64,000 bases of DNA. Origin: Candidatus Parvarchaeota archaeon. Lineage in GTDB: Archaea; Nanobdellota; Nanobdellia; WJKC01. Positions 26,678 through 51,878 of the stretch are shown here, in pieces (positions within the stretch are counted from its first letter, which is position 1; the number at the start of each line of letters is the position of its first letter). The position numbers and the translations under genes were made by a program. Below the pieces are notes generated by a model. The model worked only from the letters and a program-made list of their open reading frames with translations. It was not told the DNA's origin and did not search any database. Location: the NCBI GenBank assembly GCA_017608505.1, contig JAFCFT010000002.1, forward strand, positions 15,299 through 79,298, given 5' to 3'.

Positions 26678-29536
26678 TTAGGATAGCTTTATACCCATAT
26701 TTCTTGCTGTTAAATCAACTGCCATTCTATTGATATCTTCATTCATCGCCATGAATTTGCTGATTAAATTTGGGTTTTTGTCTAATAAGAAATCCATAAA
26801 TTTTTCTGTTAATCTTTTTAGAAGCCCTTTTTTAAATACCATTCCTAAATCTTTATCTTTGTTACCTTTAATCATTGTTGTAACAAATTCATCATGGGTT
26901 ACATTTTCAATATATTCTTCTATTAATCCTTTTTCATCATCAGATAATGATGATTCAAATCTTAAGTTAATTGCTTCAACAACTTCTTTAACAGTTACAT
27001 ATTCTATTTCTCTTTTTTTACCCGCACTAATTATTTCTTTTTCTTTTGGTTTTTCCTTTTTAACTTCTTTTATTTTATATTTAGTTACATAAATTTTTTC
27101 TAGTTCTTTATCAAGCATTCTAAGTTTACCAAAAGGGCTTAAATAATTAGCCATATAATACGAAAACCTAGCAAAGTTTCTTAAGTCTTTATCTCTGATT
27201 ACGAATAAATTGTTTAAGAAGTTAAATGTATTATTATACTTCACTAATAAGCCTCTGAATTCTCTTCTTTTCTTAACTTCATATTTATGCAATCTCTTTT
27301 CTATATTTTGCGCAATTTTTTCAAAATAGAGATTAGTTTCATTATTAAGTATCCCTATATTAAAATCGTCTACGTCTTTTTTAGTAAAAACATTCCAATT
27401 AATTAAATCAATATATATTTTACTTAGTTCTTTAGTGTCTAATCCTGTTCTATCAATAACTGTTTTTTTGTATCTTCTGAATGCTTTTATAATTTCTTTG
27501 TACGAGTTCGTGAAATCAATTGTTAATGTGTCCCTTTTGTTTGGGAATACTCTGTTTAATCTGCTTATAGTTTGCACAGCATTAATTCCTGAAACACTTT
27601 TATCAAGAAACATTGTGTGTAATAATGGTTGATTAAATCCATATTGAAACTTGTTGGCCACTATTAAAAATCTGTAATTTTTTTTCTTAAATTCATCCTC
27701 AATTTTTCCTTTTATTTTATTTAAGTTTGCTTCAGTATATACTTTATCATCACCTTTTTTTAATTTAATACTACCTGTAAACGCCACTAAAGTTTTGTAC
27801 TCTAATCCTTGGTCTTGTAATTCTTTGTCTAATATTAGTTTATACTTAACTGCTGCTTTGCGACTGCTAGTTACTATCATTGCTTTGGCATAATTATCTT
27901 TTATTGCATTCTTAGTATGTTCTTCAAATATTTTGATTATGATTTTCACTTTAGCCTTTATTATATTTTCATCCTCGTAAGCTTTGGCTTTAATTTTTTT
28001 AATAACTGGCAATGGAGGGTATTCTTTACCTTCTCCTATTTTTTCTGATAACTTGTATAGTGTTTCGTAAGGAATAATATTATCAGATACATTGAGTATT
28101 TTACCCTCTTTTTCTGCTTGATCCATACTATAAACATCAAAGGGTTTACCAAACATTTGTATTGTTTTATCACTTGGGGTTGCAGTTAATGCAATAAAAA
28201 CCAAGTTTGGAAATTTTCTCTTAACTAATTCTGCACTTAACTCGTCTTGGAAGTTTTCTTCATAAGGTTCAAAATAACCTAACATGTTTTTGTGTAGTTT
28301 ACCTGTTTGTGATCTGTGCGCTTCATCAATTATTATACAAATCTTTTTACCTTTCTGTTCTGTTAGTAATTCTTTTAACTTTGTGACTGAGAATTTGTGT
28401 ATGGTGCTTACCACTACTTTTTTATTTTTGTTTAATGCTGTTGCTAATTCTTTCGTTGTTTCAACATAGGCTACTAAACCTTTTTGTGTTTCAACGTTTC
28501 TTATTTCATTTCCTAATTGTGTGTTAAGATTAATCCTATCTGTCAGTATTACTATTGAATCAAACAAAGGTTTATTATCGTAATGTATGTGTCTTAGGAA
28601 TCTTTGGAGTATTGCTATTGTGTAACTTTTACCGCTTCCTGCACTATGTTGTATTAAGTATCTTAAATCTAGTTTCTTAGTTTTCGAATAATTCTTTAAT
28701 ATATCTTCTCTAATTTTATTTACTGTTCTTCTCTGATGATATCGTGGGAAGAAAAAAGTAGTAACTTCTCTTCCATCTGGAAGTTTTACTTTTATGGTAT
28801 GCAAGTAATGTTCTATTATTTCTATTAATGATTCTGGTGTTAGTATTTCATTATACAAATATTCTATATTATACTCATTCTCTACTTGCGGGTTAATTAA
28901 GTCTTTGTTAAACCATACGAAGTCTTCAACACTATTACTAATGAATTCAGTGGCTATCTTAACATTTTTAGTGTCTGCTGCGATATGTAGTATTGGTTTC
29001 TTAAATATGTTCAAGCTTTTATCCCTGTCATCAATGTATTGTATTACTGCGTCATCAACTACTTGACCAGTTAATGGATTCTTTAATTCTATTGTGATTA
29101 AGGCAAAACCATTTAGGAATAAAACAATGTCTATTGATTCCATTGTTTTTCTGAAACAGAATTGTCTAACGTAACTGAAAATGTTTGATTCATAACGTTT
29201 TAATGTTTCAGGATTATAACTCGTCTCGGGTTTAAAATAAATTAACCTAATTTTAATATCATTGATTGTTATTCCATCTCTTAAGACCTCAAATAATTTC
29301 TTTTTATCTAATTCTTTACTAATCACTTTCTTAACTTCTTTAAGCCACTTATTGCCAAAAAATGATTTTAATTCTTTAACTTCTTCTGGTTGGGTTCTGG
29401 TTAAGAACTCCATTAATATATTATCGTCGATGTTAATACTTAAATCGATGTCATCAGTAACCCGCTTGCGATAACCATGGGCTTCTAATCTTTCACAAAA
29501 ATGAGTCTCAAACTTCTCTTCTTTCGGACCAGTCAC
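26678..29536 (-). CDS. hsdR: Type I restriction enzyme R subunit (HsdR)
   Basis: 952 aa with SF2 motifs 'HSAGSGKS' and 'IIDEAHRSQ', and an N-terminal nuclease region. It overlaps hsdS by 4 nt. Confidence 0.85.
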   Translation of the reverse strand: MTGPKEEKFETHFCERLEAHGYRKRVTDDIDLSINIDDNILMEFLTRTQPEEVKELKSFFGNKWLKEVKKVISKELDKKKLFEVLRDGITINDIKIRLIYFKPETSYNPETLKRYESNIFSYVRQFCFRKTMESIDIVLFLNGFALITIELKNPLTGQVVDDAVIQYIDDRDKSLNIFKKPILHIAADTKNVKIATEFISNSVEDFVWFNKDLINPQVENEYNIEYLYNEILTPESLIEIIEHYLHTIKVKLPDGREVTTFFFPRYHQRRTVNKIREDILKNYSKTKKLDLRYLIQHSAGSGKSYTIAILQRFLRHIHYDNKPLFDSIVILTDRINLNTQLGNEIRNVETQKGLVAYVETTKELATALNKNKKVVVSTIHKFSVTKLKELLTEQKGKKICIIIDEAHRSQTGKLHKNMLGYFEPYEENFQDELSAELVKRKFPNLVFIALTATPSDKTIQMFGKPFDVYSMDQAEKEGKILNVSDNIIPYETLYKLSEKIGEGKEYPPLPVIKKIKAKAYEDENIIKAKVKIIIKIFEEHTKNAIKDNYAKAMIVTSSRKAAVKYKLILDKELQDQGLEYKTLVAFTGSIKLKKGDDKVYTEANLNKIKGKIEDEFKKKNYRFLIVANKFQYGFNQPLLHTMFLDKSVSGINAVQTISRLNRVFPNKRDTLTIDFTNSYKEIIKAFRRYKKTVIDRTGLDTKELSKIYIDLINWNVFTKKDVDDFNIGILNNETNLYFEKIAQNIEKRLHKYEVKKRREFRGLLVKYNNTFNFLNNLFVIRDKDLRNFARFSYYMANYLSPFGKLRMLDKELEKIYVTKYKIKEVKKEKPKEKEIISAGKKREIEYVTVKEVVEAINLRFESSLSDDEKGLIEEYIENVTHDEFVTTMIKGNKDKDLGMVFKKGLLKRLTEKFMDFLLDKNPNLISKFMAMNEDINRMAVDLTARNMGIKLS

Positions 29537-30843
29537 GCTACCACCTTCATTTTACCAGTAACACAATCATTAATTAAAACCCTCTTATATTCTTCTAACC
29601 TTTTGATTTCATCCTCAATGATATCTATAGCACTCTTTATTTTCTCAGTAAAAGAATCCAAAAAAGCAACAATAGCTTCTTGTTCTTCTTTGTCCGGTAA
29701 TGGAAAATAAAAATTAACAAACGTTTTTTGGTACAAATGAGAAATTGTTGAACCTGTCTTAATATATTCAATAAAATTATTAAAAAGTTCTGAATTAAGA
29801 ACCCAGAACATAAACTTTGGCACGTAAATATTATTTTCAGGTCTTATAACAAAAACACCACTATTAAGAGTGGCTTTTCCGTAAAAACCTTCAATAAATG
29901 CTACTTTTCCAATACTACCATCTTTTGTAACTAAAACATCTTCATTTTGAATTTGTATATATGGATCCTGTAAATATCTTTCTTCATCAACGTGATGACA
30001 GGTTTCCCAATTTATTTTACCATTTTCAAAATTGGTTCCAGTTATTAAATAAGGCCCTTCATCTCTATATTCCTTAGATGTTAATCCTTGCCAACCTATT
30101 CTTGATTTAACATAAGATGTTGTTTTTATTCTTTTAATTTTAAACCTTTTAGCAATATGATTTAGCCATTTTATTCCACTGTCTTTCATTTCAACATTAG
30201 GGTTTAATCCTTTAGTGACTGCTTGATTAATAACTATTTTCTCATACTCTTTCAGTAATTCAACTTGTTTACGCTTATTATTAATCACTTTATCTAACTT
30301 ACTGGTCTTATCATCCAAAAAAGAAGCAATAGCCTCTTGCTCGTCTTTTGGTGGGAAAGGTATTTTAAAATTCTTAACAATATTTTCATTAATATGTCCC
30401 TGGGCCCCTCCAATTGTTTTTTTTAAAAAATAATCTTTTGAATTTAGCAATATGTAAAATAAGAATCTTGGAATAAAAGAATTATTAGGATAAAGTGCTG
30501 TAACTGATTGGTTAGCTGCAGAATCAAATTTTAAATAAGCAACATTGGCTCTAGTGGCGCCAGTTAGAGCAATTAATACAGAATTCCTTGGAAATAATTT
30601 AGCTGAACTTTCACTTAAACCTAACTCAGTAATAAAAATATCTGCTTCATATAAATCACAATTTTGAATTTTACCTGATGGTAACCAAGGAATGTTTCCA
30701 CCCCAATATTCTGATTTGGCTGTTGATGGAGTCCCCCCACTCGAAGTATTTGCAAAATTTTTAATTTTTCTTAATCTCCAATGTTTTGGTAAAGACTCGA
30801 CATATTCATAATCCACACATTTATACTCCTGATAAGTTCTCAT
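29533..30843 (-). CDS. hsdS: Type I RM specificity subunit (HsdS), two TRDs
   Basis: Duplicated conserved spacers 'PFPPKDEQEAIASFLD' and 'FPLPDKEEQEAIVAFLD'. Confidence 0.85.
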   Translation of the reverse strand: MRTYQEYKCVDYEYVESLPKHWRLRKIKNFANTSSGGTPSTAKSEYWGGNIPWLPSGKIQNCDLYEADIFITELGLSESSAKLFPRNSVLIALTGATRANVAYLKFDSAANQSVTALYPNNSFIPRFLFYILLNSKDYFLKKTIGGAQGHINENIVKNFKIPFPPKDEQEAIASFLDDKTSKLDKVINNKRKQVELLKEYEKIVINQAVTKGLNPNVEMKDSGIKWLNHIAKRFKIKRIKTTSYVKSRIGWQGLTSKEYRDEGPYLITGTNFENGKINWETCHHVDEERYLQDPYIQIQNEDVLVTKDGSIGKVAFIEGFYGKATLNSGVFVIRPENNIYVPKFMFWVLNSELFNNFIEYIKTGSTISHLYQKTFVNFYFPLPDKEEQEAIVAFLDSFTEKIKSAIDIIEDEIKRLEEYKRVLINDCVTGKMKVVA

Positions 30844-31805
30844 GTTTCTTCACTCCTTGTTAATTCGAAGTCAAATTCTTGTAATTTTAAAGCACATTCA
30901 ATAATATAATTGATACAAAAATCTAAATCTTCCTTATTAAAGGTTATTTCTGTTGATGGCATATGAAAAATTGGCTCAGGAGAACCAATAGCCCATACTG
31001 GTTTAGGGATAATTAATGAAAACTTAATGAATTTTCTATAATCTAAGCCAAAAGCAAGAATCTTAACGGCTTTTTGCATAGACTCAATAGATTCCTTTAC
31101 TTTATCAATAAACTCAGATAATCTATCAACATCAAATACTTGATTTTCATTGTTTAGATTAGGAATAAAATTATTTCTTATATTAAAACTATTCAACCAA
31201 GTCATATCTTTTCCAAAGAAAAAAGGTGACTCTCCAAACCTTGTTCTTTTTGATGACTCATAATCCTTTAATAAAAACTCAAAAGCCAAGGAAAGAGCTT
31301 TAATAGATTCATTCTTATTTGAAGAGAATTCACTTTTAGCTTTCTCTAAATAACTTCTAACTTTACTATTAAAAACCAAATTTATAAGAGAGATATCCTT
31401 AACATCAAGGTTATAAACATTTTTACATAATTCTTCAAAAATATTATTTGCAATAATTCTAGATTCTTGAACATCTGTTTTACTTGAAAATATTCCATGA
31501 TGCTTTAAATTAACTCTTTTTCTTTTTAATTTATCTAAACTTGGTCTTGAACTAATTTCAACTTTTGGAGGATTATCATTTATCCAATCATTTATTTTAT
31601 CAAAATATTGCATAAAACTAAGATTATTTGAGTTTATGTCCTTATCTTCTAAGACTAATAAAAATGCTAGTTCAAGAGCATCATGATAATGTAAAAGTGC
31701 CACTGAAGATAACGGTTCTGGTTTTTTGGATTCTTCATTTCCTTTTTCAATTAAGAATTTAGCAAAAGCCAATCTTTTAAGTATAATTTCTCGAGTTAAT
31801 GACAT
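30840..31805 (-). CDS. Unknown protein embedded in the Type I RM operon between hsdM and hsdS (possible HEPN-like toxin/abortive-infection component)
   Basis: 321 aa, all-alpha in appearance, translationally coupled (4-nt overlaps) with hsdS. It has an Rx4H-like 'RVNLKHH' segment. No ATPase motifs. Confidence 0.35.
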   Translation of the reverse strand: MSLTREIILKRLAFAKFLIEKGNEESKKPEPLSSVALLHYHDALELAFLLVLEDKDINSNNLSFMQYFDKINDWINDNPPKVEISSRPSLDKLKRKRVNLKHHGIFSSKTDVQESRIIANNIFEELCKNVYNLDVKDISLINLVFNSKVRSYLEKAKSEFSSNKNESIKALSLAFEFLLKDYESSKRTRFGESPFFFGKDMTWLNSFNIRNNFIPNLNNENQVFDVDRLSEFIDKVKESIESMQKAVKILAFGLDYRKFIKFSLIIPKPVWAIGSPEPIFHMPSTEITFNKEDLDFCINYIIECALKLQEFDFELTRSEET

Positions 31806-31821
31806 TTTTAATCCTCCATAA

Positions 31822-33582
31822 TCATTTTATTAGCCCTAATTCTTTTAGCAGTTTTTTATTTTCTTCTTCTAAGTCTCTAAATTCTTTGATTACTTCTTCT
31901 TGCGACCTTAAAGGTTTATACTTATAAAAGTATTGAGTGAAATTAATCTCGTAACCAACAACCTGTTTCTTAATCTTATATGGTTTTTCAACTTCACGCT
32001 TTAAATATTCGTTAATATCTTCTTTTAGTGGGACATACTCAGCGTCATTAATCTTAACAATTTGAGTGACCTCCTTTCGTTCACCATTAACTTTTTTCAC
32101 AACAGTTTCTTTCTTAGGATTGCCGTTTTCATCAACATCAGTAAGTTCAAGAAATACCTTAGTATAACCAAAATCCTCATTATCAAAAATCTTGGAATTA
32201 TCAGACTCCTTAAATTCCTTATAAATCTCAAAAATCTTAACAATTTGGTCATCAGAGATATACTTACGCTTATTACCAAGACTCTTCTTCATAGGCTCAT
32301 AAAAATTAACAGCATTAATGAGTTGTACCTTACCCCTCCTTCTAGGTTCTTTCCTATTACGGATTATCCATCTGTACGTGGCTATACCTGTGTTATAAAA
32401 TAAATCAGTAGGTAAAGCAATAATTGCATCAATCAGATCATTCTCCAATAAATACTTCCTAAAATTACTTTCACCACTACCAGCATCCCCAGTGAATAAA
32501 GGACTGCCATTAAAAACAATAGCAATACCACTGTCCCCATCACTAGGATTCTTAAGTTTAGATAACATGTGCATTAAGAACAAAGTAGCCCCATCAGACA
32601 CGCGAGGAAGCATGTCCTTAGGGAAACGACCACTAGCATCATCAAGAATAGCTTTTTTATCCTTCTTCCAAGTAACACCGAAAGGAGGATTAGACAACAT
32701 GAAATCAAACTTAGCATTAGGAAACTTATCATTAGTTAATGTATTGCCAAATTTAATATTATCAGACTCTTCACCCTTAATTAACATATCAGAAGCGCCT
32801 ATCGCCCAAGTCTCAGGTTGCTTTTCCTGACCATAAACAATCACTTTAGCCTTAGGATTAACTTCTTTAAGAATAAATTCTTTAGCAATCACTAGCATAC
32901 CCCCAGTACCACATGCAGGGTCATAAATCTCTTTAATCTCACCATCCTTAATCTTAGAATCATTAATCAAAAGTTTAACCATTAATTTAATAACTTCACG
33001 AGGAGTAAAATGTTGTCCTGCTTCCTCACCAGTCTGCTCTGAAAAACGCCTAATTAACTCCTCAAAGATGTAACCCATCTTCTCGTTACTAATAACTTGG
33101 GGAGACAAGTTTAACTCAGAATACTGCTTTAATAATGGATACAACAATTTATCCTTCTCTAACTTATTTAACTCTTTGAAAAGACCAAAGTATTCAATAA
33201 TCATTTTAATATTATCTGTAAAACCATTCAAGTAACTCTTAAAATTCTCTTTAATCTCACTAGTTTTTTCAGCGCAAAGTTTTTCGAAAGTAAACTTAGA
33301 TTTATTATCAAATCCGAGAGAGGTAATTAATTTGTTATGAATAAACTTCCTCTTTTCCGCGTCATCCATTTTAATATTTTTAAGTTTTTTTTCAATTTCT
33401 TTCCTTTTTTCTTCTAAAACACACTCAATCCTTCTAAGAACAACAAAAGGCAATATAATGTCTTGATACTGATGTTGCTTATAAGTATCTCTTAATATTT
33501 CAGCAGATTGCCAGATAAAATTTACTTCAGCACTTATATTAATATGGTCTGCTTTCATATTATAAAACATAACATACACCAT
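31822..33582 (-). CDS. hsdM: Type I RM N6-adenine DNA methyltransferase (HsdM)
   Basis: 'DPACGTGGML' (motif I) and 'LSNPPFG' (motif IV), 586 aa. Confidence 0.9.
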   Translation of the reverse strand: MVYVMFYNMKADHINISAEVNFIWQSAEILRDTYKQHQYQDIILPFVVLRRIECVLEEKRKEIEKKLKNIKMDDAEKRKFIHNKLITSLGFDNKSKFTFEKLCAEKTSEIKENFKSYLNGFTDNIKMIIEYFGLFKELNKLEKDKLLYPLLKQYSELNLSPQVISNEKMGYIFEELIRRFSEQTGEEAGQHFTPREVIKLMVKLLINDSKIKDGEIKEIYDPACGTGGMLVIAKEFILKEVNPKAKVIVYGQEKQPETWAIGASDMLIKGEESDNIKFGNTLTNDKFPNAKFDFMLSNPPFGVTWKKDKKAILDDASGRFPKDMLPRVSDGATLFLMHMLSKLKNPSDGDSGIAIVFNGSPLFTGDAGSGESNFRKYLLENDLIDAIIALPTDLFYNTGIATYRWIIRNRKEPRRRGKVQLINAVNFYEPMKKSLGNKRKYISDDQIVKIFEIYKEFKESDNSKIFDNEDFGYTKVFLELTDVDENGNPKKETVVKKVNGERKEVTQIVKINDAEYVPLKEDINEYLKREVEKPYKIKKQVVGYEINFTQYFYKYKPLRSQEEVIKEFRDLEEENKKLLKELGLIK

Positions 33583-33602
33583 TAATATTTATTTTTATAT
33601 AA

Positions 33603-33821
33603 TTAACCATAAATAGTCCATGCTTCCTTTTTGAAACTTTTTTCAAACTCTTTAGTTCGAATTTCTTCAAATAGCATGTAAGACTCTAAAAAGACTTTCA
33701 TACATTTCTCACAAACAGGTATTCTACCATTTTTATTTTTTTTGTTACCTAAGAACTTATCTGTTTTAGACTTACAAAAGTGGCAATTGTACTTCTTTAT
33801 TCTTAACAAGTTCTTAATCAT
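33603..33821 (-). CDS. Small zinc-finger protein
   Basis: 72 aa, 'CHFCKS...CEKC'. Confidence 0.35.
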   Translation of the reverse strand: MIKNLLRIKKYNCHFCKSKTDKFLGNKKNKNGRIPVCEKCMKVFLESYMLFEEIRTKEFEKSFKKEAWTIYG

Positions 33822-33894
33822 TATATCACCTCCATTTTTCCTAAATAATAATGGACAATTAAAGTATTAAAATATTATATTAGAAATTACAAAA

Positions 33895-34602
33895 TTATTC
33901 TGTAATATTGAGTGCTACAAGTAATTTACCTGCTGGTTTTAAGATTACCCTGGTGTTCCTTCCTTCTCTTTCCATTTCAATTAAACCACGCCGCTTTAAA
34001 GATTTAAGACTAGCATTAATTTTTTGTGGTTTATGAATAAAAGGCAACTCACCATATCTATCCTTAAAATTTTCACAATATACCCTTCTAAAATAAGTAC
34101 AATTTTCTACTTCACCATTAAATGAATTAAGAATCTTAAGAATATTCCATTGTACATTAGTTAAATCTGTTGCTTTAGGAATTTTAAACATTGGCAATTC
34201 ATTTACCAAATCCTTAGTTTTAGCATCCTTTAATATACGTTTATCAAGAACATAATAACCTGTTGCATTAATTAAAATTATAGCAATACTAGCTGCGGCA
34301 GCCATAATATTGGTGCCCATGGTTATATTAAAATAAAAATTAATATTGGAATTGTTTTTTAATTCAATATCTGCAGTTTTTTTTACTTTTATAATTAAAT
34401 CAGTTAATTCAAATGGATTAATAGTAATTGTAGAAACAGAATCACAAATAGCTAATTTAATAATCTTTTCTGCTTCTTTAGAAACATTCTTAGTGCCTTC
34501 AGAATCAATAAGGTAAACTTTATCTATATCCTCGTAGTGCTTTAAACCAGTAATAATTGGTTCAATTCCGCTTTTTCCAACATTAATAAAATGGATATTC
34601 AT
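33895..34602 (-). CDS. CARF-domain plus winged-helix transcriptional regulator (Csa3-like)
   Basis: The N-terminal Rossmann-like 'IHFINVG...VYLIDSEG...NITMGTN' parallels the Csa3 CARF 'DLTMGMR' ligand loop. The C-terminal wHTH is 'LKSLKRRGLIEMEREGRNTRVILKPAG'. Confidence 0.5.
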   Translation of the reverse strand: MNIHFINVGKSGIEPIITGLKHYEDIDKVYLIDSEGTKNVSKEAEKIIKLAICDSVSTITINPFELTDLIIKVKKTADIELKNNSNINFYFNITMGTNIMAAAASIAIILINATGYYVLDKRILKDAKTKDLVNELPMFKIPKATDLTNVQWNILKILNSFNGEVENCTYFRRVYCENFKDRYGELPFIHKPQKINASLKSLKRRGLIEMEREGRNTRVILKPAGKLLVALNITE

Positions 34603-34647
34603 AATGTTAAAATTAAAAGTTGTAATATCTTAAAAAATATTGCTATA

Positions 34648-35334
34648 CTATAAATATTTAATCATTAAATCCAATAATTCATCGAAAGCGTATAAAGATA
34701 ACAAAAAAATATTAAAGATTACTAAAAACCCTCCAGGACTTTTTTTATTAGTTATAAGATCAGTACTTGAATATCGTTTTTTTATTGGATCGTGATGTTT
34801 ATCTCTTTCATCAGATAAAAAATCAAAAATAAAAAAAAATCTTGGATTTACTGCATCGTATTTTTTTAAAGTAGAAAATAAATTCTTATCCAATTTTACC
34901 CCACTCATTATTATTCCAGGATTCTGTAATCGCCCAACAGTCTCCTTATACATATCTTTGTATTTACAAAAAATAGTAAAATTCTTCGCATAAATAGACA
35001 TTCTGTCACCCTTTTCTTTAGGATCTATATCTATATTTAACTTGTTCAATATTACTTTGAAAACTCTTTTAAAAACAGCATCATTCAATGCACTGACAAT
35101 ATCAACAAAATAAGCAGAATTATCACTACTAATAATCCTTTTTATATCATTCTTTTGATCAATTAAATATTCTATCGCTGCTTCTAATTCTTTTTTTTGA
35201 ATAGAAGTTAACCAAGAAATTTTTTCAAGTTTTTTAATAATGTCCTCTTTAACAAAGTCAATATTATCCAATACACCTTTTATTGATTTTTTTATTTCTT
35301 TAAGACTACAGTCACGACTACTCATTAAAATCAC
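34648..35334 (-). CDS. hypothetical protein with a C-terminal transmembrane helix
   Basis: 228 aa with a hydrophobic C-terminal 'GGFLVIFNIFLLSLYAF'. It overlaps the downstream Type IIG gene by 4 nt. Confidence 0.35.
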   Translation of the reverse strand: MILMSSRDCSLKEIKKSIKGVLDNIDFVKEDIIKKLEKISWLTSIQKKELEAAIEYLIDQKNDIKRIISSDNSAYFVDIVSALNDAVFKRVFKVILNKLNIDIDPKEKGDRMSIYAKNFTIFCKYKDMYKETVGRLQNPGIIMSGVKLDKNLFSTLKKYDAVNPRFFFIFDFLSDERDKHHDPIKKRYSSTDLITNKKSPGGFLVIFNIFLLSLYAFDELLDLMIKYL

Positions 35335-37397
35335 TTATATAAATTATCTAATTCTTTTTTTAGTAAAACTATTTGTGATTCTAACAAATCAATTTTATTT
35401 TGCAATTCTTTTGCCTTTAACATTTTTTCTTTTTGTTTATCAAAGCGTAGTAATGGAATCCTCAAATTTTTTAGTGTATCTATTGGTAAGTGCTTTATCA
35501 CTCCATAACTAAAATTCTCGATTTGTTTTTTAACATAATCGGTTTTTAATAATGAATGTAAATAATAAGGATTAATATCTTTTTTTGGTCTTAAAGCAAC
35601 AAGAGAACTCGAGTGAACTCCTCTATAATCTTCATTAAATATAGCGGTTTTACCTATAGTACCAGTAATTGAAAATAGTATGTCGCCTTTATTTAAATTA
35701 AATTTAAATTTTGAAGAATCGATATTGACTAAATCTTTATTAACAATCGTTCCTGCATATAAATTTAATATTCTAATATACTTTATTTTGCCCTTCCCAT
35801 AATCTTTTTTTGGAACGTGGATCCCAGGGTAGATTTCACATAATTCTTGCAATCTTACAATTTTAATATTATTCTTGCGATACGTTTCTTCAATTTTCTT
35901 TATATCATTCAAATAAGGACCAAATGACAATATATAATTATAACTTTTGATTTCGTTTATACATACTAATTTTCGTAACTTTCCTAAAATCAAAGGTTTA
36001 TCTTCTTCGAATTTTTTAATATACTCTACAATCCCTTCAAATTCCATTTTTAATTTTTCATTAGCAACATCTTTATTTGAGTAATCTTCTTTACAATCAA
36101 TCATCAAAATATCGTTTTTGGTCCTACAATTATCAATAATCATTATTGATGATTGAATATGCATTAATGGGGCCCAAATATTTATAGGCAAGTTTATAAT
36201 CGCTTTAATTGAGTATTCTTCTAATAAATATTTTCTGAAATGCTTATTTGTATTGTCAAATAAAAAACCATTGGGAACTATTACTATTAATCTACCTTTT
36301 GGATTTAATGATTTAAGTGCAACATAAATAAAAGCAGCTTCAACACTTTTAAATTTGGTTAAATCATTTAATTTATCCTTATTTGGCCTTAATCCAAATG
36401 GAGGATTCAAAAATATTACATCAAATTTTTCATGAATCTGGTCATTAAGAACATTTTTAATTTGTAACTCAACATCAATATTTAAGAGGTACTTTATTAA
36501 TTTTATAAAATAAATATTATTCGAATTTTTTTCAAAACCAGTTAATTTAAAATTGTTCAATAAAGCATTTTTTACTAAAACTTGACCTTTTTTGCAATTA
36601 AAATCTGCAAATGATCTAGAATCCTCTTTTATTAATCCCAAAATAAAGTCAACCAATATATTTGGAATATAAGATTCGTCAAATTTACTATTTATTAATT
36701 TGTAATCATATACTATATTTATTATTTTTTCCAATGTTTTTTTATCCAAACTAAGTATATTTAAACTTTTCATTAATAATTCCAAATCGTTTTCTTTGTT
36801 AGTAAAAAGTTTATTAATATTCAAATATTCGGGATCAATATTAAGTTCTCTTGATAACTTTTTTGATAACTCATTTATTTTATCTTTAAATTCATTTAAA
36901 TTTTTGTATTCAAATAAATTTTTAGACCTACCATATTTAATTAACGCCAATAATTTTATAATTATAACTGTACCATTTTCTCTATAATTCCTTAGGTAAT
37001 TAAATATTCTCCAAATTTTACTCGTAACATCAGTATCAAAAGACTCAAGTAATGGAATTTCAGGTACTTCACTAATTTTCTTATTTTTTTTCCTAAAATA
37101 GATAAAATTATCTCCGTTAGTTAATATTCCATAAGGAAAATTAGAATTTAACAACAATTCATTCAATTGAATTTTTGATAAACTACTATCAATCAACTTT
37201 TTAATTTCAATTAAAATATAAGGTTTTGAATCAACATAACAAACTAAATCAGCAATATATTTTACACCATTTTTAATAAAACAACAATTTTTCTCAAATA
37301 ACACATTAACGTCTTTATTAAATCCTGCTCTCAATTTTTCAATAACTTTATTAACAGTTTTTAATCTCCAATTTGGGCGATACTGATTTTCACTCAT
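35331..37397 (-). CDS. Single-chain Type IIG-like restriction-modification enzyme (PD-(D/E)xK nuclease + N6-adenine MTase + HsdS-like TRD)
   Basis: N-terminal 'DLVCYVDSKPYILIEIKK' (D...EIK), 'FLNPPFG' methyltransferase motif IV, and a C-terminal TRD with an HsdS-like conserved tail. 688 aa. Confidence 0.6.
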   Translation of the reverse strand: MSENQYRPNWRLKTVNKVIEKLRAGFNKDVNVLFEKNCCFIKNGVKYIADLVCYVDSKPYILIEIKKLIDSSLSKIQLNELLLNSNFPYGILTNGDNFIYFRKKNKKISEVPEIPLLESFDTDVTSKIWRIFNYLRNYRENGTVIIIKLLALIKYGRSKNLFEYKNLNEFKDKINELSKKLSRELNIDPEYLNINKLFTNKENDLELLMKSLNILSLDKKTLEKIINIVYDYKLINSKFDESYIPNILVDFILGLIKEDSRSFADFNCKKGQVLVKNALLNNFKLTGFEKNSNNIYFIKLIKYLLNIDVELQIKNVLNDQIHEKFDVIFLNPPFGLRPNKDKLNDLTKFKSVEAAFIYVALKSLNPKGRLIVIVPNGFLFDNTNKHFRKYLLEEYSIKAIINLPINIWAPLMHIQSSIMIIDNCRTKNDILMIDCKEDYSNKDVANEKLKMEFEGIVEYIKKFEEDKPLILGKLRKLVCINEIKSYNYILSFGPYLNDIKKIEETYRKNNIKIVRLQELCEIYPGIHVPKKDYGKGKIKYIRILNLYAGTIVNKDLVNIDSSKFKFNLNKGDILFSITGTIGKTAIFNEDYRGVHSSSLVALRPKKDINPYYLHSLLKTDYVKKQIENFSYGVIKHLPIDTLKNLRIPLLRFDKQKEKMLKAKELQNKIDLLESQIVLLKKELDNLYK

Positions 37398-37478: not shown

Positions 37479-38051
37479 TTAAAATAATAGCTTACTCACT
37501 TTCCTCTTCACAGCAATCAACGAAGACTCGCATATCCCGAACTCCTTCGTCACTTTTGACATGCTTATTTTCTCTTTGTTCTTCTTGGCAGTGTCGTATA
37601 GGACCACTGCAGCTAAAACCATTGGGTCGTTGTTTAAGCCCATTTTTTCGATTAATTCGATTTTCCTAATTGCCTCGCTTATAGTTTTGCCACTCAAGCC
37701 CAGATTGTTGCTGTAGCGGGTTATCAAACCAGACATCTGCAGCGCCACAACACTAAGTCTTAAGCTCTTAGTGACTGTCTTGTAAGTCCTGAACAAAGAG
37801 TACTTGTCCGTGTCCAGGGCGCGCGCAATCTCCTTCATACTCACAGTATACCCGTCGCGCTTGCACACGTAATAAGTCAGTGCTCCTATTGCCCTGTCAG
37901 TGAATATTCCCTGGCTCTTGCCAAAATTAATTAGTTCCCAGTATAATCGCATAACTTCGCGCTTAACGCTCCTTGGCAGGCATAGTATGTTGTTCAGCAT
38001 GTCAAACTCCCTGCCAGCAGTAAGCACGCGGTTGATTTTTGGAGTGCCCAT
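37479..38051 (-). CDS. TFB-like protein, cyclin-fold core only (no N-terminal Zn-ribbon or B-reader)
   Basis: Two cyclin repeats align to the TFB core ('LCLPRSVKREVMRLYWE', 'RAIGALTYYVCKRDGYTVSMKEIA', 'ITRYSNNLGLSGKTISEAIRKIE'). The likely start is at Met15 (MGTPKINR) with 'CCTTTATATA' about 25 nt upstream. Confidence 0.65.
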   Translation of the reverse strand: MGTPKINRVLTAGREFDMLNNILCLPRSVKREVMRLYWELINFGKSQGIFTDRAIGALTYYVCKRDGYTVSMKEIARALDTDKYSLFRTYKTVTKSLRLSVVALQMSGLITRYSNNLGLSGKTISEAIRKIELIEKMGLNNDPMVLAAVVLYDTAKKNKEKISMSKVTKEFGICESSLIAVKRKVSKLLF

Positions 38052-38234
38052 CGTAGAATTATTGTGAATAAGTAGTATATAAAGGAAAAACAACCGAAGT
38101 AGTTAAAAATTAACAATACAATATATTTTATAAAGATAGTACTGAAATCTAGTCTTTCAAAAATCTATAAGCCAAAATTTAAGTCTAGGTACGCTAAGGA
38201 GAAGTCCTCCAAATAGGTCGCTCAAGTTTCTAAA

Positions 38235-38579
38235 TTACTTTTTATGAATACTCCAACTGAATTTTAATAGGCCTAAATTAACCTCAAAACCAAATGTATG
38301 TTTAAATTTTGGTTGATTTTCTACGATGTTAATACCTTTAGGTAAAATTCGTGTCACAAAAAATATTTGAGCTCCATTTATATTACCTATTGCTCCATAA
38401 CTCTTAAGAATGCCTAAATCATTAAGATAATTATATGCTAAATTAATTCTCTTTCCATTCCATTTTGTTTCATTAATCACATCTCGTGTTCCAACACTAC
38501 TTTTGCCTTTATTCACTAACTCGTTATAAAAGAAAAGTAACAATTCACCCGCATCTTTTTGAACTCCCATTTTCATCAC
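38235..38579 (-). CDS. hypothetical protein
   Basis: 114 aa ORF overlapping the next gene by 4 nt. Confidence 0.3.
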   Translation of the reverse strand: MMKMGVQKDAGELLLFFYNELVNKGKSSVGTRDVINETKWNGKRINLAYNYLNDLGILKSYGAIGNINGAQIFFVTRILPKGINIVENQPKFKHTFGFEVNLGLLKFSWSIHKK

Positions 38580-40051
38580 TTCAAATTTATATTATACACA
38601 AAGAGGTATGGATTAAAATATGCATCATAGCCTAATTCGAATACTAATTTTACAGACGTAACTGACATTGGAACATCTTTAAATAATACATAACCTTTCT
38701 TTGTAACACCAGGATAAATTTTAGAAAATATTGTATCTAATGTTCCACCGAAAGTACTTTCATACTGGTTTCTTTGGTTGTCTATAATTACCATGCCAGA
38801 TGGTGAAAAATAATCACTTTCACTCCCAATATTTTTAACTTCCATATCTACTCTAAAGTATTGTTTTTTATTACTCCATTTGTTATATAGATTAAAGAAA
38901 CCAGCTTTTGTTACAGTTACTTCAAAATTATCATTACTTATTTTTTTATTAACTATTATTGCATTTTTATTATATTCTTCCTCAGCCAATTGCTCATATG
39001 TGTATGTTTTTTTGTTTTTCAAATCGAAAATATAATCTCCAATAATTATTTTTGAGATATCTACATTTTTAGGAACGTTTTTAAAAGCCATATAACCAGT
39101 TTTTTTAGCTCCACTTTCAATCTCTCCTCCTTCAAACTTTGACCTATATGACCTTTCATATTGATTACTACTAGAATCAATCAATTTTGTATTATAAATA
39201 TAGAAAGAATTTGTTTGTTTTGCCTCAACTTCTAAATCGACTCTTAAAAGGTTTTCTGCAGATATAGAACTATAATCTGTAAAGAATCCATATTTAGTAA
39301 TTCTTATTTTAAAATTATCATCTTCTAATTCCAGTAATGTTTGTTTTGCATTTTTATTATATTCTTCCTCAGCCATTTGCGTAAGTTCTTCTTTTGTGTA
39401 AGTTGGTATCTGTACTACCGTATCTTCTATATGTAATTCTTTTCCATCTGAAGTTACAAAGGTAAGAACTGCCCTACCAAAAGAAGAAATGCCTTTTTGG
39501 ATCTCAGATATTGGTACCCTCCATTCATACGCTTTTCCAATATCTTGACCTGTAAACATAAATTGATAATCAACAAATTCCGATGCCTTTACATCAAATT
39601 CTTTATAATACAGGGAATTATTTAAATTATCAAATATTTCTACCTTCACATGTCCATCTCCAGGTGTGTTTTTCCCATATACATCTTCAAGTAAAAAATA
39701 AAATCTAATTATTTCTCCTTCTTTAACTGTTGCAAAGTAATTTATATTAACAGGCGAATATTTAGAAGCGGTTGTTTGGGATGTATGGGATATTTGTATG
39801 TTTTGTAGAATGTTGGTAGGCGAATATTTAGAAGCGGTTGTTTGGGATGTTTGTGTTTTTTCAGCTGGAATTCCAGTTTGACCTTGCTCTTGAACACAAC
39901 CACATATAAAAACAATTCCAACAATCAAAATTACAATTAATCTTGAATTCATGAATATTTGTTTTTCTATTTTGTTTACCATTTCATAAATTTTATAAAA
40001 TCTTTTTCTTTTAAAGCTTTTTATAATAACAACCCCAAAGGCGGATTGCAA
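38576..40051 (-). CDS. Secreted/surface protein with internal repeats (DUF4352-like Ig-fold repeats)
   Basis: N-terminal TM/signal 'LIVILIVGIVFICGC' with lipobox-like Cys. A duplicated 'SQTTASKYSP.NI' segment is encoded by a 34-bp DNA repeat at 39757/39820. A duplicated 'AEEEYNKNA...NDNF..T.TK.GFF' domain is also present. Confidence 0.45.
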   Translation of the reverse strand: MQSAFGVVIIKSFKRKRFYKIYEMVNKIEKQIFMNSRLIVILIVGIVFICGCVQEQGQTGIPAEKTQTSQTTASKYSPTNILQNIQISHTSQTTASKYSPVNINYFATVKEGEIIRFYFLLEDVYGKNTPGDGHVKVEIFDNLNNSLYYKEFDVKASEFVDYQFMFTGQDIGKAYEWRVPISEIQKGISSFGRAVLTFVTSDGKELHIEDTVVQIPTYTKEELTQMAEEEYNKNAKQTLLELEDDNFKIRITKYGFFTDYSSISAENLLRVDLEVEAKQTNSFYIYNTKLIDSSSNQYERSYRSKFEGGEIESGAKKTGYMAFKNVPKNVDISKIIIGDYIFDLKNKKTYTYEQLAEEEYNKNAIIVNKKISNDNFEVTVTKAGFFNLYNKWSNKKQYFRVDMEVKNIGSESDYFSPSGMVIIDNQRNQYESTFGGTLDTIFSKIYPGVTKKGYVLFKDVPMSVTSVKLVFELGYDAYFNPYLFVYNINLK

Positions 40052-40081
40052 CTAACAATTCAAGATATACGACATTGGTCA

Positions 40082-40552
40082 CTACGCCTTACCCGCTTTC
40101 CTGAAGGAAAACACTTCGCAGCAGCTCCTGAGAGTGCATAGTCTTTTCACTTCCTCATTGTCCTCGTTCAAGTGGTAGTACACTCTTCCCTTGTTCGACT
40201 TGCTCCTTGAGGTCTTCTTGAGAACCCCCTTGTGCTCCAAGAGCCACAGCCTGTGGTTGGCGTAGGCGTAGCCCACCCCCAAAGCCTGGCTTACTTCAAG
40301 CGTGCTTAACGGCCTGCCCTTGATCTTGAACAACTCAACGATCCGCATCTCAGCAGGGCTTAAAATCATGCCATTAGTATGCCTGCAAGTTATATTTAAA
40401 GATGAAGCTATAAGAAGAATAAGACGATTAATAATTGCTAATATATTAATTGTTAAAAAAGAATTGTAACATAAGACTCTTCTCTTCTCAAGACTAGACA
40501 AATCTAATACAAGTCGCTCATTTAGTGGACATAAGAAGTATTTAAGGCGCAA
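40082..40552 (-). CDS. Membrane-anchored winged-helix DNA-binding protein
   Basis: N-terminal hydrophobic segment, then wHTH 'LSTLEVSQALGVGYAYANHRLWLLEHKGVLKK'. Confidence 0.45.
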   Translation of the reverse strand: MRLKYFLCPLNERLVLDLSSLEKRRVLCYNSFLTINILAIINRLILLIASSLNITCRHTNGMILSPAEMRIVELFKIKGRPLSTLEVSQALGVGYAYANHRLWLLEHKGVLKKTSRSKSNKGRVYYHLNEDNEEVKRLCTLRSCCEVFSFRKAGKA

Positions 40553-40604
40553 GCAAAATCACAAAAAATTGATGCATTAAGAACAGTTAGAAGTTTTAAT
40601 CTTC

Positions 40605-41168
40605 TTATTCGTCTTGGCACTCTTTCACGCTCTTCCACACATGGCTTATGCTCATGCCAGAGACTCTTGCCAGGTCCCTAATGCTCACTCCTTGGTCACT
40701 ACACGCTAGATAAATGCACACGAGCGCCTTGGTCTTGTTCGTCTTGTTCACTAATTTTTTCTCAACTTCTTTTATCTTCTTTATTGCTTTTGACGCCTCG
40801 CTCTCCGCAAGCCCTAATTCGTAGCACAGCCTCGTGATGTAGAAGCTGGTGTCAACTTGTTTTCTGGGAAGGTCCACGTTCTGCTTGATAAAAGACTTGC
40901 ACCTAAGCAGGCGCTTCTTCTCAACGCCAGAAGCCTTAATGACTTCCTTTAATAGCAAAGGGTAGTTCAGGAGTTCGCTTACGACCAGCAGGCAGGCGTT
41001 CACAAGCTCTTTCCTGCTCCTGCCTTGTGTTAATTGTTTAAGCATCAACTGCTTGTACAACTTGATAGTGTTCTGGAATAGTCTTTCAGGCAGTCCTAAC
41101 TCATTGCACGTGCTGCGCAATTCCTCATAGGCAGGCATCAAGGACTTAATGAATTGCGAATACTCCAC
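40605..41168 (-). CDS. TFB-like protein, cyclin-fold core only (second paralog; GTG start)
   Basis: It aligns along the whole TFB core ('GRSRKELVNACLLVVSELLNYPLLLKEVIKASGVEKKRLLRCKSFI', 'RLCYELGLAESEASKAIKKIKE', 'GVSIRDLARVSGMSISHVWKSVKE'). 'CCTTTATATATTA' TATA-like box lies about 30 nt upstream. There is no room for a Zn-ribbon. Confidence 0.7.
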   Translation of the reverse strand: MEYSQFIKSLMPAYEELRSTCNELGLPERLFQNTIKLYKQLMLKQLTQGRSRKELVNACLLVVSELLNYPLLLKEVIKASGVEKKRLLRCKSFIKQNVDLPRKQVDTSFYITRLCYELGLAESEASKAIKKIKEVEKKLVNKTNKTKALVCIYLACSDQGVSIRDLARVSGMSISHVWKSVKECQDE

Positions 41169-41221
41169 AAATAATAACGAGAAATACTAATATATAAAGG
41201 TAACACAAATATTTAGTGTTT

Positions 41222-43067: not shown

Positions 43068-44288
43068 ATGGTTTTGTATTCGCATTCAAGGCTTAGCGCT
43101 TTCGAGAACTGCCCTTTAAAGTACAAGTTTCGGTACATTGACAAATTGAGGACTGATGTTTCCCAAAGTATAGAAGCGTTCATGGGCGACATGGTTCATC
43201 AAACGCTTGAGAAAGTGTACACTGACGCCAAGTTCCAAAAATTCATGACTGCAAAAGAGGCAAAAGAATATCTAAAGCAGTTATGGAAGAAAAACTGGAA
43301 TGACAGTATAGTCATTGTGCGCAAAGAGTACGGCCCAAGTAATTATTTGAAAATGGCTTTAAAATTTATTGAGGACTACTTCAAGAAGTACGACGTAGCA
43401 AACGACGGCATCACAATAGGATTAGAAGAAAGAGTTGTAATAAACCTTGACAAGCAGGGAAGATTCAAGCTCCAAGGATACATTGACCGCCTGGCCTGCC
43501 ACAACGACACAGAATACCACATTATTGACTACAAGACTAACAGTCACTTAAAAATCCAAGACCAATTAGACAACGATAGACAACTAGCTTTATATCAACT
43601 GGCAGTGCAACACAATTACAGAGATGCCAAGAAGATATTGCTGAAGTGGCGCTTTTTGGCATTCAACAAGGAGCTGACAAGCATAAGGACGCGCGAGGAA
43701 TTAAAAGCCTTAAAGAAAGACACAATACAGTTGATAAAACAGATAGAGAAAACAAAGGAGTTCAAGCCAAAGGTGAGCAGGCTATGCGACTGGTGTGAGT
43801 ACAGGCAAATCTGTCCTGAATGGGCGCACATGTATGAATTGGAAACTAAAAGCGCTAATGAGTACTTGAAAGATGACGGCGTGACGCTGGTAAACAAATA
43901 TATAGAATTAAGCGAGCAGAAAAGAAAGCTTGTAAGCGAGATAGATGAAAAGCTAGACAAGCTTAAAGAAGCGCTTGTTAAGTTTGCAAAGAAAAGGGGC
44001 GTGAACGTGGTGTTCGGTTCAAATAACAAGATAAGAGTAAGCATCACAGACCATTACAAGTTCCCAGGCAAAGGCACAAAAGAAAGAGAAAAACTAATAG
44101 AAGTGTTGAAGAAATTAAGAAAATGGGAAGAAATAGCAGATATAGACACTTACGGGCTTAACAGGATAATGAAAGAAAAACTGTGGAGCCCGCAGGAATT
44201 AAGGTTGATAAGGAGATTCGCGACAAAAGAGGAAACACACAGACTTTATCCAAGCAGGATAAATAAGGAAGAAGATACGCAGAAGTAG
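43068..44288 (+). CDS. Cas4-like / RecB-family PD-(D/E)xK nuclease with Fe-S cluster cysteines (solo, no cas1/cas2)
   Basis: N-terminal 'SHSRLSAFENCPLKYKFRY', motifs 'GYIDRL', 'IIDYKT' and 'QLALYQ', and C-terminal 'CDWCEYRQIC'. 406 aa with a long coiled C-terminal extension. Confidence 0.65.
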   Translation: MVLYSHSRLSAFENCPLKYKFRYIDKLRTDVSQSIEAFMGDMVHQTLEKVYTDAKFQKFMTAKEAKEYLKQLWKKNWNDSIVIVRKEYGPSNYLKMALKFIEDYFKKYDVANDGITIGLEERVVINLDKQGRFKLQGYIDRLACHNDTEYHIIDYKTNSHLKIQDQLDNDRQLALYQLAVQHNYRDAKKILLKWRFLAFNKELTSIRTREELKALKKDTIQLIKQIEKTKEFKPKVSRLCDWCEYRQICPEWAHMYELETKSANEYLKDDGVTLVNKYIELSEQKRKLVSEIDEKLDKLKEALVKFAKKRGVNVVFGSNNKIRVSITDHYKFPGKGTKEREKLIEVLKKLRKWEEIADIDTYGLNRIMKEKLWSPQELRLIRRFATKEETHRLYPSRINKEEDTQK

Positions 44289-47963: not shown

Positions 47964-48030
47964 GCCTTACTATTGAATAGAAGAAGTATTTAAAGTTGGA
48001 GTTGGATATAAATATATAGGGGATGTATAA

Positions 48031-49207: not shown

Positions 49208-49283
49208 AATCTTGATCATCTCGAAATAACTTATAATCTTTGTATTTCTTTTATATAATTCTTCTTCATATTATTAAGTTGAA

Positions 49284-49535
49284 ATGGTATTCTGCGAGTT
49301 CTGCAATATGAGGATGATAAGGTGCAGGCACGAGTACTATTGCCCCAAGTGCGGTTTGGTGAAGGAAGACTTCTTTGATACTAAAACAAGTTATGACGGC
49401 CGCACTTACCCGTACGGCGCTATGCCATTGTGGATGAGCAACTTGCCGCAAACAAAGCCGGCGCATGTCTGGCATAATGGCCGTCCAAGACCAATCTGGA
49501 AGATAAAGGAAATAGGGGTGGTGACATTTGAGTAA
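49284..49535 (+). CDS. small zinc-ribbon protein
   Basis: 'CEFCNMRMIRCRHEYYCPKCG' (CxxC...CxxC). Confidence 0.35.
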   Translation: MVFCEFCNMRMIRCRHEYYCPKCGLVKEDFFDTKTSYDGRTYPYGAMPLWMSNLPQTKPAHVWHNGRPRPIWKIKEIGVVTFE

Positions 49536-51866: not shown

Positions 51867-51878
51867 ACGCCCGGGCCG
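51867..51878. repeat. att-like core, proximal copy (3' end of tRNA-Asp)
   Basis: Identical to 26386-26397. Confidence 0.5.

Follow-up and report, generated by a model that had tools for sequence, protein, structure and literature searches.

A predicted pair of ribbon-less TFB core proteins recurring beside integrases and anti-virus genes in DPANN archaea

We analysed a 64,000-nt stretch of contig JAFCFT010000002.1 (GenBank assembly GCA_017608505.1, Candidatus Parvarchaeota archaeon), called the window throughout, for two genes on its minus strand whose products resemble the core of the archaeal transcription factor TFB. Gene A (37479..38051) encodes 190 aa with two cyclin repeats, and gene B (40605..41168) encodes 187 aa from a GTG start at 41168. 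With high confidence, both are real and conserved TFB paralogs that consist of the core only: they carry no N-terminal Zn ribbon, B-reader or B-linker and in this depart from canonical TFBs. TFBc, the isolated core, forms ternary complexes with TBP and DNA yet cannot recruit RNA polymerase. As far as sequence can tell, A and B make up a conserved pair of genes, so far undescribed, which is found repeatedly next to integrases and anti-virus gene clusters and is probably a promoter-specific regulator rather than a general shut-off factor.

Gene A and gene B encode TFB cores

A preliminary description of this DNA had claimed that both proteins align along the whole TFB cyclin-repeat core, and the profile searches agreed. 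Against the Pfam TFIIB repeat PF00382 (gathering score 23.6), A reached 27.4 bits and B 65.4 bits, the latter in two stretches. In the NCBIfam model PRK00423 (TFB, 312 positions), A covered positions 126-292 and B positions 123-293, which is the core alone, and phmmer aligned both proteins essentially end to end with the Pyrococcus TFBc crystal constructs 1AIS/1D3U (E=7e-12 for A and E=1.3e-14 for B). The AlphaFold2 models, with a mean predicted local distance difference test (pLDDT) score of 88.7 for A and 88.5 for B, each contain two five-helix repeats with 10-11 helices in all, and the top 30+ Foldseek matches of the two models in the PDB were all TFIIB, TFB or Brf cores. Cyclins came far lower, from an E-value of about 5e-4 only. 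Placement in a non-TFB cyclin family, which the description had named as an outcome that would speak against it, was not found; TFB and TFIIB were best in both sequence and structure. The A model superposes on DNA-bound TFBc with a TM-score of 0.68 and a root-mean-square deviation (rmsd) of 4.1 Å, and A and B, like TFBc, are basic (net charge +16 for A, +12 for B and +11 for TFBc). At only 27% identity over 147 residues, A and B are too diverged for a recent duplication, as had been stated; their distance from each other is about equal to the distance of each from canonical TFBs.

The minus-strand open reading frames (ORFs) listed by the ORF finder are 37479-38093 and 40605-41168. The extent of gene B is identical to the public JGI gene call P0001. 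For gene A, the likely start is the ATG at 38051; the TTG at 38093, which was the choice of the ORF finder, is unlikely because it lies upstream of the TATA box of the gene. CCTTTATATA stands at 38076-38085 before gene A and at 41191-41200 before gene B, and the TATA octamers within it (38076-38083 and 41191-41198) are separated from the start codons by 24 nt and 22 nt, respectively. With only these gaps between octamer and start codon, both genes look leaderless, so the earlier statement that each has its own TATA box and a leaderless start holds. The CC before both octamers was likewise confirmed: among the 32 TTTAWATA octamers in the window, only those of genes A and B are preceded by it.

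Both proteins start 9-12 residues ahead of the first core helix, and the nearest in-frame stop lies 17 codons upstream of the start in gene A and 6 codons upstream in gene B, which leaves no room for a Zn ribbon, B-reader or B-linker, as the description had it. No Cys motif occurs in the short open stretches between these stops and the starts, and no CxxC motif occurs in or beside either gene. A hidden Markov model (HMM) built from 75 canonical TFB N-termini found no ribbon adjoining gene A or gene B. A hidden N-terminal exon or a frameshifted ribbon was considered for both genes and rejected on the basis of the upstream stops and the lack of a match to the N-terminal HMM. The description had allowed that a missed upstream ribbon would overturn it. 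None of the searches found one in frame or adjoining the genes; what does exist is a separate Zn-ribbon mini-gene at 49284-49535, to which we return below.

Two conserved families of core-only proteins

We ran a profile search with HMMER over 1.84 billion representatives and excluded from the ranking four entries that were the queries or their clusters. The 14 strongest remaining matches (E=1e-31 to 1e-51) were all 117-211 aa long, with the match starting at residue 1-10, and full-length TFBs of about 300 aa ranked only below them. Among the best 150 representatives, 35 were ribbon-less and shorter than 235 aa, and 34 of these 35 begin with Met. More than 15 clusters at 50% identity share the same short architecture starting at Met, and members of the core-only families are about 170-215 aa long. 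Given the 35 ribbon-less proteins among the best 150, ribbon-less TFB cores are a wider, uncharacterised phenomenon, and we take A and B to be functional members of families under selection. A and B had been introduced as mere N-terminal truncations, and here the preliminary description has to be corrected, as they sit in two conserved families whose 14 best matches are all short. Word-indexed homologue searches returned only 2-3 relatives.

The relatives fall into two distinct orthologous groups, A-type and B-type. The A-type comprises the product of gene A (winA), P0156, P0158, P0030 and P0154-P0159, and carries the motif LTYYVCNREGHGTSM; winA is 37-42% identical to other A-type proteins, and its closest relative, in locus L031, reaches 65% identity. 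The B-type comprises the product of gene B (winB), P0003, P0007-P0017 and the products of the 209-217-aa genes of loci L015, L017 and L019, and carries the motif LTxGRxR..L..AC.Y. Orthologues of winB were found in L001, L015, L017, L019 and L021-L028; they are 31-41% identical to it, and the closest relative, P0002, is 64% identical. The named members of the families belong to metagenome-assembled genomes (MAGs) of Candidatus Nanoarchaeia, and both types have so far been found only in Nanoarchaeia-type DPANN. In L031, the A-type gene (1423-1977) has an in-frame TAG after codon 124, after which the frame is open through the whole second cyclin repeat; it could be a pseudogene, a sequencing error or a case of read-through.

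A literature search found no described core-only TFB family; its coverage was incomplete, and this is absence of evidence only. A scan with gene B of a genome collection that does not contain the host species gave no match, and a metagenome scan for the A-type hit short contigs only. The viral scan for the A-type and a tblastn search of INPHARED with B also gave no match, and the one relative of B in IMG/VR was a distant one, a 295-aa full-length TFB with ribbon. Altogether, IMG/VR, INPHARED and PHROGs yielded no core-only homologue, the viral TFBs there being full length. A viral origin of the island-borne A and B was considered and is unsupported, as no virus-borne core-only homologue was found.

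Altered DNA-contact residues

We compared the A-type and B-type proteins with the 75 canonical TFBs at residues of the DNA-binding core. The canonical recognition helix reads T-E-V-T-x-R, and its V and R are conserved in 84% and 95% of the 75 canonical TFBs, respectively. In the A-type it reads S-E-S-T-I-Y (S176 and I179 in winA), and in the B-type S-x-S-x-x-(W/variable) (S175 and W178 in winB). We take the helix V and R to be the equivalents of human V283 and R286, the residues that read the TFB recognition element, BRE (Lagrange et al. 1998; Tsai & Sigler 2000). The equivalents of these residues are replaced in both families, a further departure from canonical TFBs. The GR loop of repeat 1, the counterpart of human G153/R154, which contacts DNA downstream of TATA, is present in 100% of the B-type, and the A-type keeps the G and has F or I in place of the R. 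The Pro of VPR is retained in the B-type, and neither family conserves the Arg found in the canonical CR and VPR motifs. Since the recognition helix is altered while A and B stay as basic as TFBc, the comparison argues for a DNA specificity that is changed, not lost. The changes at the BRE-reading, GR, CR and VPR residues also favour an action confined to particular promoters over simple, global competition across all promoters of the host.

A promoter element shared by three genes

The promoter of gene A (38076..38093, minus strand) consists of TTGTTTTTCC followed by TTTATATA, with a conserved upstream element in and beyond the BRE position. The promoter of gene B (41191..41208, minus strand) consists of TTGTGTTACC and TTTATATA and lies 22 nt upstream of the GTG. 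A third promoter of this kind, TTGTATTTCT and TTTATATA at 49240..49257 on the plus strand, lies 26 nt upstream of the ATG of the stand-alone Zn-ribbon gene (49284..49535, plus strand), whose 83-aa product (CEFC...CPKCGLV) is a candidate TFB-type ribbon. The element is 18 bp long. In A promoters, conservation extends to both sides of the TATA box. The L015-type lineage has the consensus TTGTTCTnnCTTTAWATACTTCCnGTTATCT, and the window/L031 lineage has TTGTTyTnCCTTTATATACnnCTTATTCAC.

The pattern TTGTNYTNNCTTTAWATA, built on A promoters outside the window, was searched for in the window at up to 1 mismatch. In the 64 kb it gave exactly 3 matches against 0.23 expected, a number that none of 100 shuffles attained; the matches fall at the promoters of A, B and the Zn-ribbon gene. 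Across the 32 fetched loci, the pattern is confined to A promoters, and the same element stands upstream of the A-type genes in L015, L017, L021, L022/26, L025 and L031. The 13-mer TTTAWATACTTCC was found only at A promoters and at the promoter of the ribbon gene of L028-L030. In TFBc-TBP-DNA structures (1AIS/1D3U), the TFB core contacts DNA in the BRE region and just downstream of the TATA box. The element spans the BRE position and a few bases beyond it, plus the region just downstream of TATA. Because all three carry the TTGTNYTNNCTTTAWATA promoter element, the three TFB-fragment genes (A, B and Zn-ribbon) look co-regulated via a non-canonical element.

A-type and B-type genes are linked

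An A-type gene and a B-type gene stand next to each other in 8 distinct loci: the window, L015, L017, L019, L021, L022/26, L023 and L025. In 5 of the 8 they are divergent, with 58-62 nt between the start codons and a single central TTTAWATA octamer 26-27 nt from each start. The geometry of this spacer matches the bidirectional transcription from one TATA box seen in P. furiosus, where the transcription start sites lie 49-50 nt apart (PMC6640164). The pair in the window is co-directional, with three genes between B and A, and in L015 and L017, both from the MAG GCA_041653515.1, A and B are 2-3 kb apart.

Defence genes begin directly after A in 3 of the 3 loci that are long enough (window, L015 and L017). 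The cargo after A is a PLD-SNF2 helicase with an MmeI-type methyltransferase in L015; in L017 it is GmrSD, an NgoPII endonuclease and a C5 methyltransferase, followed 4.6 kb downstream of A by an integrase that is 59% identical to the window integrase. Between L015 and L017 the A proteins show 73% identity, yet the downstream cargo is unrelated. As the cargo differs while A is conserved, A marks the cargo junction and is not the partner of one restriction-modification (R-M) system. Its relation to the downstream cargo is that of an adjacent and co-directional gene only, and PADLOC matched neither A nor B to a known defence-system component. The model of A as the first gene of a defence operon, in the manner of a C protein, was rejected, since each downstream gene in the window and L015 is apparently served by a TATA box of its own and the loci carry unrelated cargo.

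The two loci of GCA_041653515.1 are two copies of one arrangement, in which a UvrD/PD-(D/E)XK helicase-nuclease, an Rce1/CPBP-like protease, the B-type gene and the A-type gene are followed by different cargo. This duplicated neighbourhood suggests a repeated integrative or defence-island scaffold. In L019 (1527-2402; also L020 600-1475 and L024), an in-frame hybrid ORF joins the 5' part of an A-type gene to the C-terminus of an integrase: the first ~115 A-type codons (87% nucleotide identity over 348 nt to the A gene of L017) are continued by the C-terminal ~175 residues of an island-type tyrosine integrase. The hybrid was seen in two independent assemblies, and the window integrase is 51% identical to the hybrid in L019; the A gene may be a recombination target. 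A comparison of the 3' end of gene A with the ends of the cargo, made for the window, L015 and L017, gave no repeats. A defence junction beside TFB-fragment genes was also observed in L028 (9619-12640), where a pilin/LamG protein is followed by a low-GC McrB-like gene (MrcB_N + AAA_5) and partner genes.

The stand-alone Zn-ribbon mini-protein

The 83-aa ribbon protein of the window is 39-44% identical to the product of a 71-aa gene that in L028-L030 lies 45 nt downstream of a B-type gene (P0014). With PF08271 (TFIIB Zn_Ribbon_TF), the L028 copy, at 27.9 bits (E=1.8e-6), falls slightly short of the gathering score of 29, and the window copy had E=0.026. In the alignment to TFB N-termini it is the ribbon part alone that matches, with the signature CPxC...CxKCGlVIE, and no B-reader or B-linker is detectable in the mini-protein. 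Its PDB matches are weak and go to generic small Zn fingers, and with the TFB N-terminal HMM it scored no better than a ribosomal-protein ribbon in the window. The ribbon gene lies 8 kb from gene B in the window; none was found within 10 kb of the A-B pairs in L015 and L017. The stop of the 83-aa gene is overlapped by a second small Zn-ribbon ORF, at 49528-49674 on the plus strand, which encodes 48 aa from a TTG and has a weak TFIIB Zn_Ribbon_TF match (E=0.0025).

Composition and neighbours of the window element

That A and B lie on a putative mobile island, as had been proposed, is supported by their composition and by the integrase/tRNA-Asp boundary. The GC content at third codon positions (GC3) is about 0.33 in host genes, for example those for RpoB'' and RpoB', and 0.16-0.28 in defence and other cargo (R-M genes, CARF, DUF4352 and others). 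In the backbone it amounts to 0.58 for A, 0.62 for B, 0.75 for the small winged-helix gene wHTH95, 0.63 for the Zn-ribbon gene, 0.51 for the integrase, 0.58 for a STAND ATPase, 0.51 for a PDDEXK nuclease and 0.51 for YdjM. The STAND ATPase, of the AAA+/STAND kind with a winged helix-turn-helix (wHTH), is thus in the same high-GC3 backbone as A and B. The region 26678-51784 is a compositional mosaic, with low-GC cassettes apparently interleaved in the high-GC3 backbone. The same GC3 contrast is seen in L015, and the composition is native in L017, L028 and L001.

The low-GC defence cargo (26678..37397, minus strand) lies directly downstream of A and encodes a fused methyltransferase-specificity protein, a CARF protein and type I hsdM, hsdS and hsdR. 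The CARF-domain protein (33895-34602, minus strand) stands alone between two R-M systems (PADLOC CARF3, E=2.5e-37; Pfam HFX_2341_N plus wHTH), and no cas genes or CRISPR array were found in the window. At the other end, a tyrosine integrase with a C-terminal Zn ribbon (50615..51784, minus strand), part of the element backbone, adjoins tRNA-Asp(GTC) (51867..51943, minus strand), the likely integration target and right border of the island. No att repeats of the tRNA-Asp region were found elsewhere in the window. A PD-(D/E)XK (Cas4/AddB-like) nuclease (43068..44288, plus strand) is 63% identical to L015 2065-3294, which is syntenic with the A-B module there.

Between B and A lies wHTH95 (40082..40369, minus strand), encoding 95 aa from an ATG 23 nt after its own TTTAAATA; the protein has weak Sta1/Lrs14/PadR matches and a homologue beside the A-B pair in L022/L026. 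Directly upstream of B, a 379-aa ORF (41222-42361, minus strand) has weak UmuD/LexA (S24 autoproteolytic) matches at residues ~228-280 (E=1.1e-3 in NCBIfam and E=1.4e-3 in PHROG); an SOS-type cleavable regulator beside the TFB module would be interesting, if real. A further promoter pattern, CYTTWWATACTTCT (a TATA box then ACTTCT), gave 9 matches against 2.4 expected. Its minus-strand sites include 40534-40547, 43016-43029, 47982-47995 and 51820-51833. The last three lie upstream of a 56-aa ORF, YdjM and the integrase, respectively, and the one at 40534 lies upstream of the wHTH95 coding region, the 95-aa start being assigned to another TATA box at about 40400. It may represent a type of promoter peculiar to the element and akin to the TATACTTCC that A-type promoters have elsewhere. 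The RNA polymerase operon (14167-20058) has a split RpoB, with B'' of 504 aa and B' of 600 aa. The best relatives of RpoB'', at 52-64% identity, come from MAGs labelled Candidatus Parvarchaeota, Nanoarchaeota, Nanoarchaeia and Woesearchaeota; with the split RpoB and the leaderless TTTAWATA promoters, this identifies the host as a DPANN archaeon of Nanoarchaeia type. No TBP gene or paralog was found in the window.

Discussion

The reading that we tentatively favour, while giving it somewhat less than even confidence, is that the core proteins work as promoter-specific, autoregulatory competitors and not as genome-wide inhibitors. We place A and B in the higher-GC backbone of an element that carries an integrase and sits at tRNA-Asp, its likely integration target; the integrase, the small wHTH protein and the stand-alone Zn-ribbon gene belong to the same backbone, and low-GC restriction/defence cargo lies directly downstream of A. 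Each core protein would bind the TBP-TATA complex as TFBc does, with an altered specificity for the flanking DNA, and the recognised site would be TTGT-N6 upstream of the TATA boxes of their own genes together with conserved bases downstream. Because a core protein without Zn ribbon or B-reader would be unable to recruit RNA polymerase alone, it would compete with host TFB at specific promoters, repressing or switching its own module, and perhaps neighbouring genes, in an autoregulatory manner.

Several observations weigh against this. The B promoters of L015 and L017 are without the TTGT element, and common descent of the orthologous A loci explains part of the conservation of the promoter motif. 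Near-invariant core residues are changed, especially in A (the Arg of GR, CR and PR), and TBP binding may have been lost with them. In the B model, the repeats are correct and the inter-repeat angle is non-canonical (TM-score about 0.5; predicted TM-score, pTM, 0.56); apo TFIIB likewise shows a non-canonical inter-repeat orientation. In L028 and L001, the B-type genes look like ordinary chromosomal genes, with native composition and housekeeping or transporter neighbours; the core-only family is thus resident in some lineages and mobilised in others, and is not intrinsically an island function. Moreover, the candidate ribbon gene shares the promoter element and adjoins the B-type gene in L028-L030, which fits two-piece activation as well as repression.

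Such a two-piece TFB would consist of the B-type core, perhaps also the A-type, and the separate Zn-ribbon protein; together they would recruit RNA polymerase to TTGT-TATA promoters and act like an alternative sigma factor for the genes of the element. The place of the 71-aa gene behind P0014, its homologue in the window, its best Pfam family, the TFB-like ribbon signature, the promoter element common to the ribbon gene, A and B in the window, and the TTTAWATACTTCC that ribbon-gene and A promoters have in common elsewhere all fit this arrangement. There is also a precedent for a TFB fragment acting in trans, the Sulfolobus TFB3 (PMC6101594; Paytubi & White 2009 as cited in PMC3189178). We nevertheless hold it to be unlikely, since only the ribbon aligns, the Pfam score stays below the gathering threshold, the PDB matches are generic, the window protein is not told apart from a ribosomal-protein ribbon by the TFB N-terminal HMM, and the A-B pairs of L015 and L017 have no ribbon gene nearby. 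It is equally doubtful that the cyclin/helix-turn-helix (HTH) core has been repurposed to bind operators flanking TATA without any contact to TBP. Such TBP-independent regulators would agree with the loss of canonical invariant residues, particularly in A, with the strongly basic proteins, with the conserved blocks on either side of TATA in A promoters, and with the divergent arrangement of a regulator pair, which is typical of mobile-element switches. However, these blocks are centred on TATA at the exact spacing that a complex of TFB core and TBP would contact, B keeps the GR loop and a TFB-like conservation over two repeats (65 bits to PF00382), and the A model superposes on DNA-bound TFBc.

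The preliminary description had cast A and B as dominant-negative factors. Of this, the core-only architecture and the foreign composition stand, whereas a general shut-off of the host is disfavoured by the replaced BRE-reading residues. That island-encoded factors occupy TBP/BRE/TATA generally and shut down host transcription is in our estimate improbable, even though TFBc is known to form the TBP-DNA ternary complex without recruiting RNA polymerase and the genes lie in an integrase context: the families are stably maintained and in some lineages have native composition and a chromosomal setting; the genes are integrated, seem to be resident and are not carried on lytic viruses, with no core-only homologue in the viral collections; and the specific shared promoter element points to a small regulon. 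A TFIIB-like fold outside transcription, for instance as a DNA-binding subunit like ORC6 in the replication or partition of the element, or as a cyclin-like adaptor between proteins, seems hardly more credible. It could draw on a weak ORC6 Pfam match of B (E=9.8e-4), on the AAA+/STAND ATPase with wHTH in the same backbone and on the cyclins among the distant structural matches, but the ORC6 match is below threshold, TFB/TFIIB cores are by far the best in sequence and structure, and evidence of origin-like repeats was not found. Least credible of all is that A and B are decaying pseudogenes or mis-called fragments of full-length TFB genes. The A-type relative with the in-frame TAG would suit this reading, which is effectively refuted by family-wide conservation: the ORFs are intact with proper promoters, the upstream DNA is taken by other genes or promoters, and the short Met-starting architecture is shared by more than 15 clusters, with conservation over 30-70% identity.

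Among known systems, the TFBc and TFIIB cores (1AIS, 1D3U, 1VOL and 1C9B) are the best sequence and structure matches of A and B, which likewise consist of two cyclin repeats end to end, are basic and have an HTH ending repeat 2; the GR loop is kept in B. The differences are that A and B are natural stand-alone proteins rather than laboratory truncations, have no ribbon, B-reader or B-linker, have their BRE-reading residues replaced and, in A, are without the GR Arg. The Sulfolobales TFB3 (and TFB2) are also lineage-specific TFB paralogs short of canonical parts that serve as accessory regulators (PMC6101594; PMC3189178). TFB3, however, keeps the Zn ribbon without the cyclin core, the opposite truncation to that of A and B, and it resembles the Zn-ribbon mini-protein of the window more; the mini-protein is only a candidate analogue of TFB3, and no homology to TFB3 was seen other than a common TFB ancestry. 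TFB homologues on archaeal mobile elements have been described from Asgard viruses and mobile genetic elements and from rod-shaped crenarchaeal viruses (bioRxiv 10.1101/2021.07.29.453957). A and B resemble these as TFB-family genes on mobile elements and match phrog_20431, but they cover only positions 97-275 of its 293-position profile, and the viral relatives found comprise the full-length IMG/VR protein with ribbon and no core-only members.

In gene layout, the pair recalls cI/cro-type switches and the C proteins of R-M systems: one compact divergent promoter serves two small DNA-binding regulators that are paralogs, and the A-B module stands beside an integrase and directly upstream of restriction/defence genes. 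The likeness is one of layout; the proteins have a TFB cyclin core instead of an Xre/Cro HTH, and A, unlike an R-M C protein, is tied to no given R-M system, the cargo of L015 and L017 being unrelated, so that only the position upstream of R-M genes is common. More speculatively, and at a low probability, each ribbon-less core could lock TBP on the shared symmetric TATA box in one orientation and thereby decide the direction or the occurrence of initiation by host TFB and RNA polymerase. A switch of this kind could govern whether a family of DPANN integrative elements, as shuttles for defence cargo, is maintained, excised or expressed, and the Zn-ribbon protein could turn one core into an activator. 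TFIIB-like cyclin cores have also been reused outside Pol II-type initiation in ORC6, Brf and Rrn7, of which ORC6 is ribbon-less as well; these are eukaryotic families, the ORC6 match is below threshold and the Brf matches are weaker than those to TFB/TFIIB.

In archaea, TFB/TFIIB paralogs correspond to alternative sigma factors. To our knowledge, every characterised TFB paralog keeps the polymerase-recruiting ribbon or, like TFB3, is a ribbon-containing fragment. A conserved ribbon-less core would, if our reading is true, be the first natural "anti-TFB"-type regulator, one that blocks or redirects initiation on the TBP/TATA platform, and would show how mobile elements of little-studied DPANN archaea control their own genes. 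The A-B pair marks a recurrent defence-cargo junction, which makes it a possible genomic landmark for defence islands and integrative elements in Nanoarchaeia.

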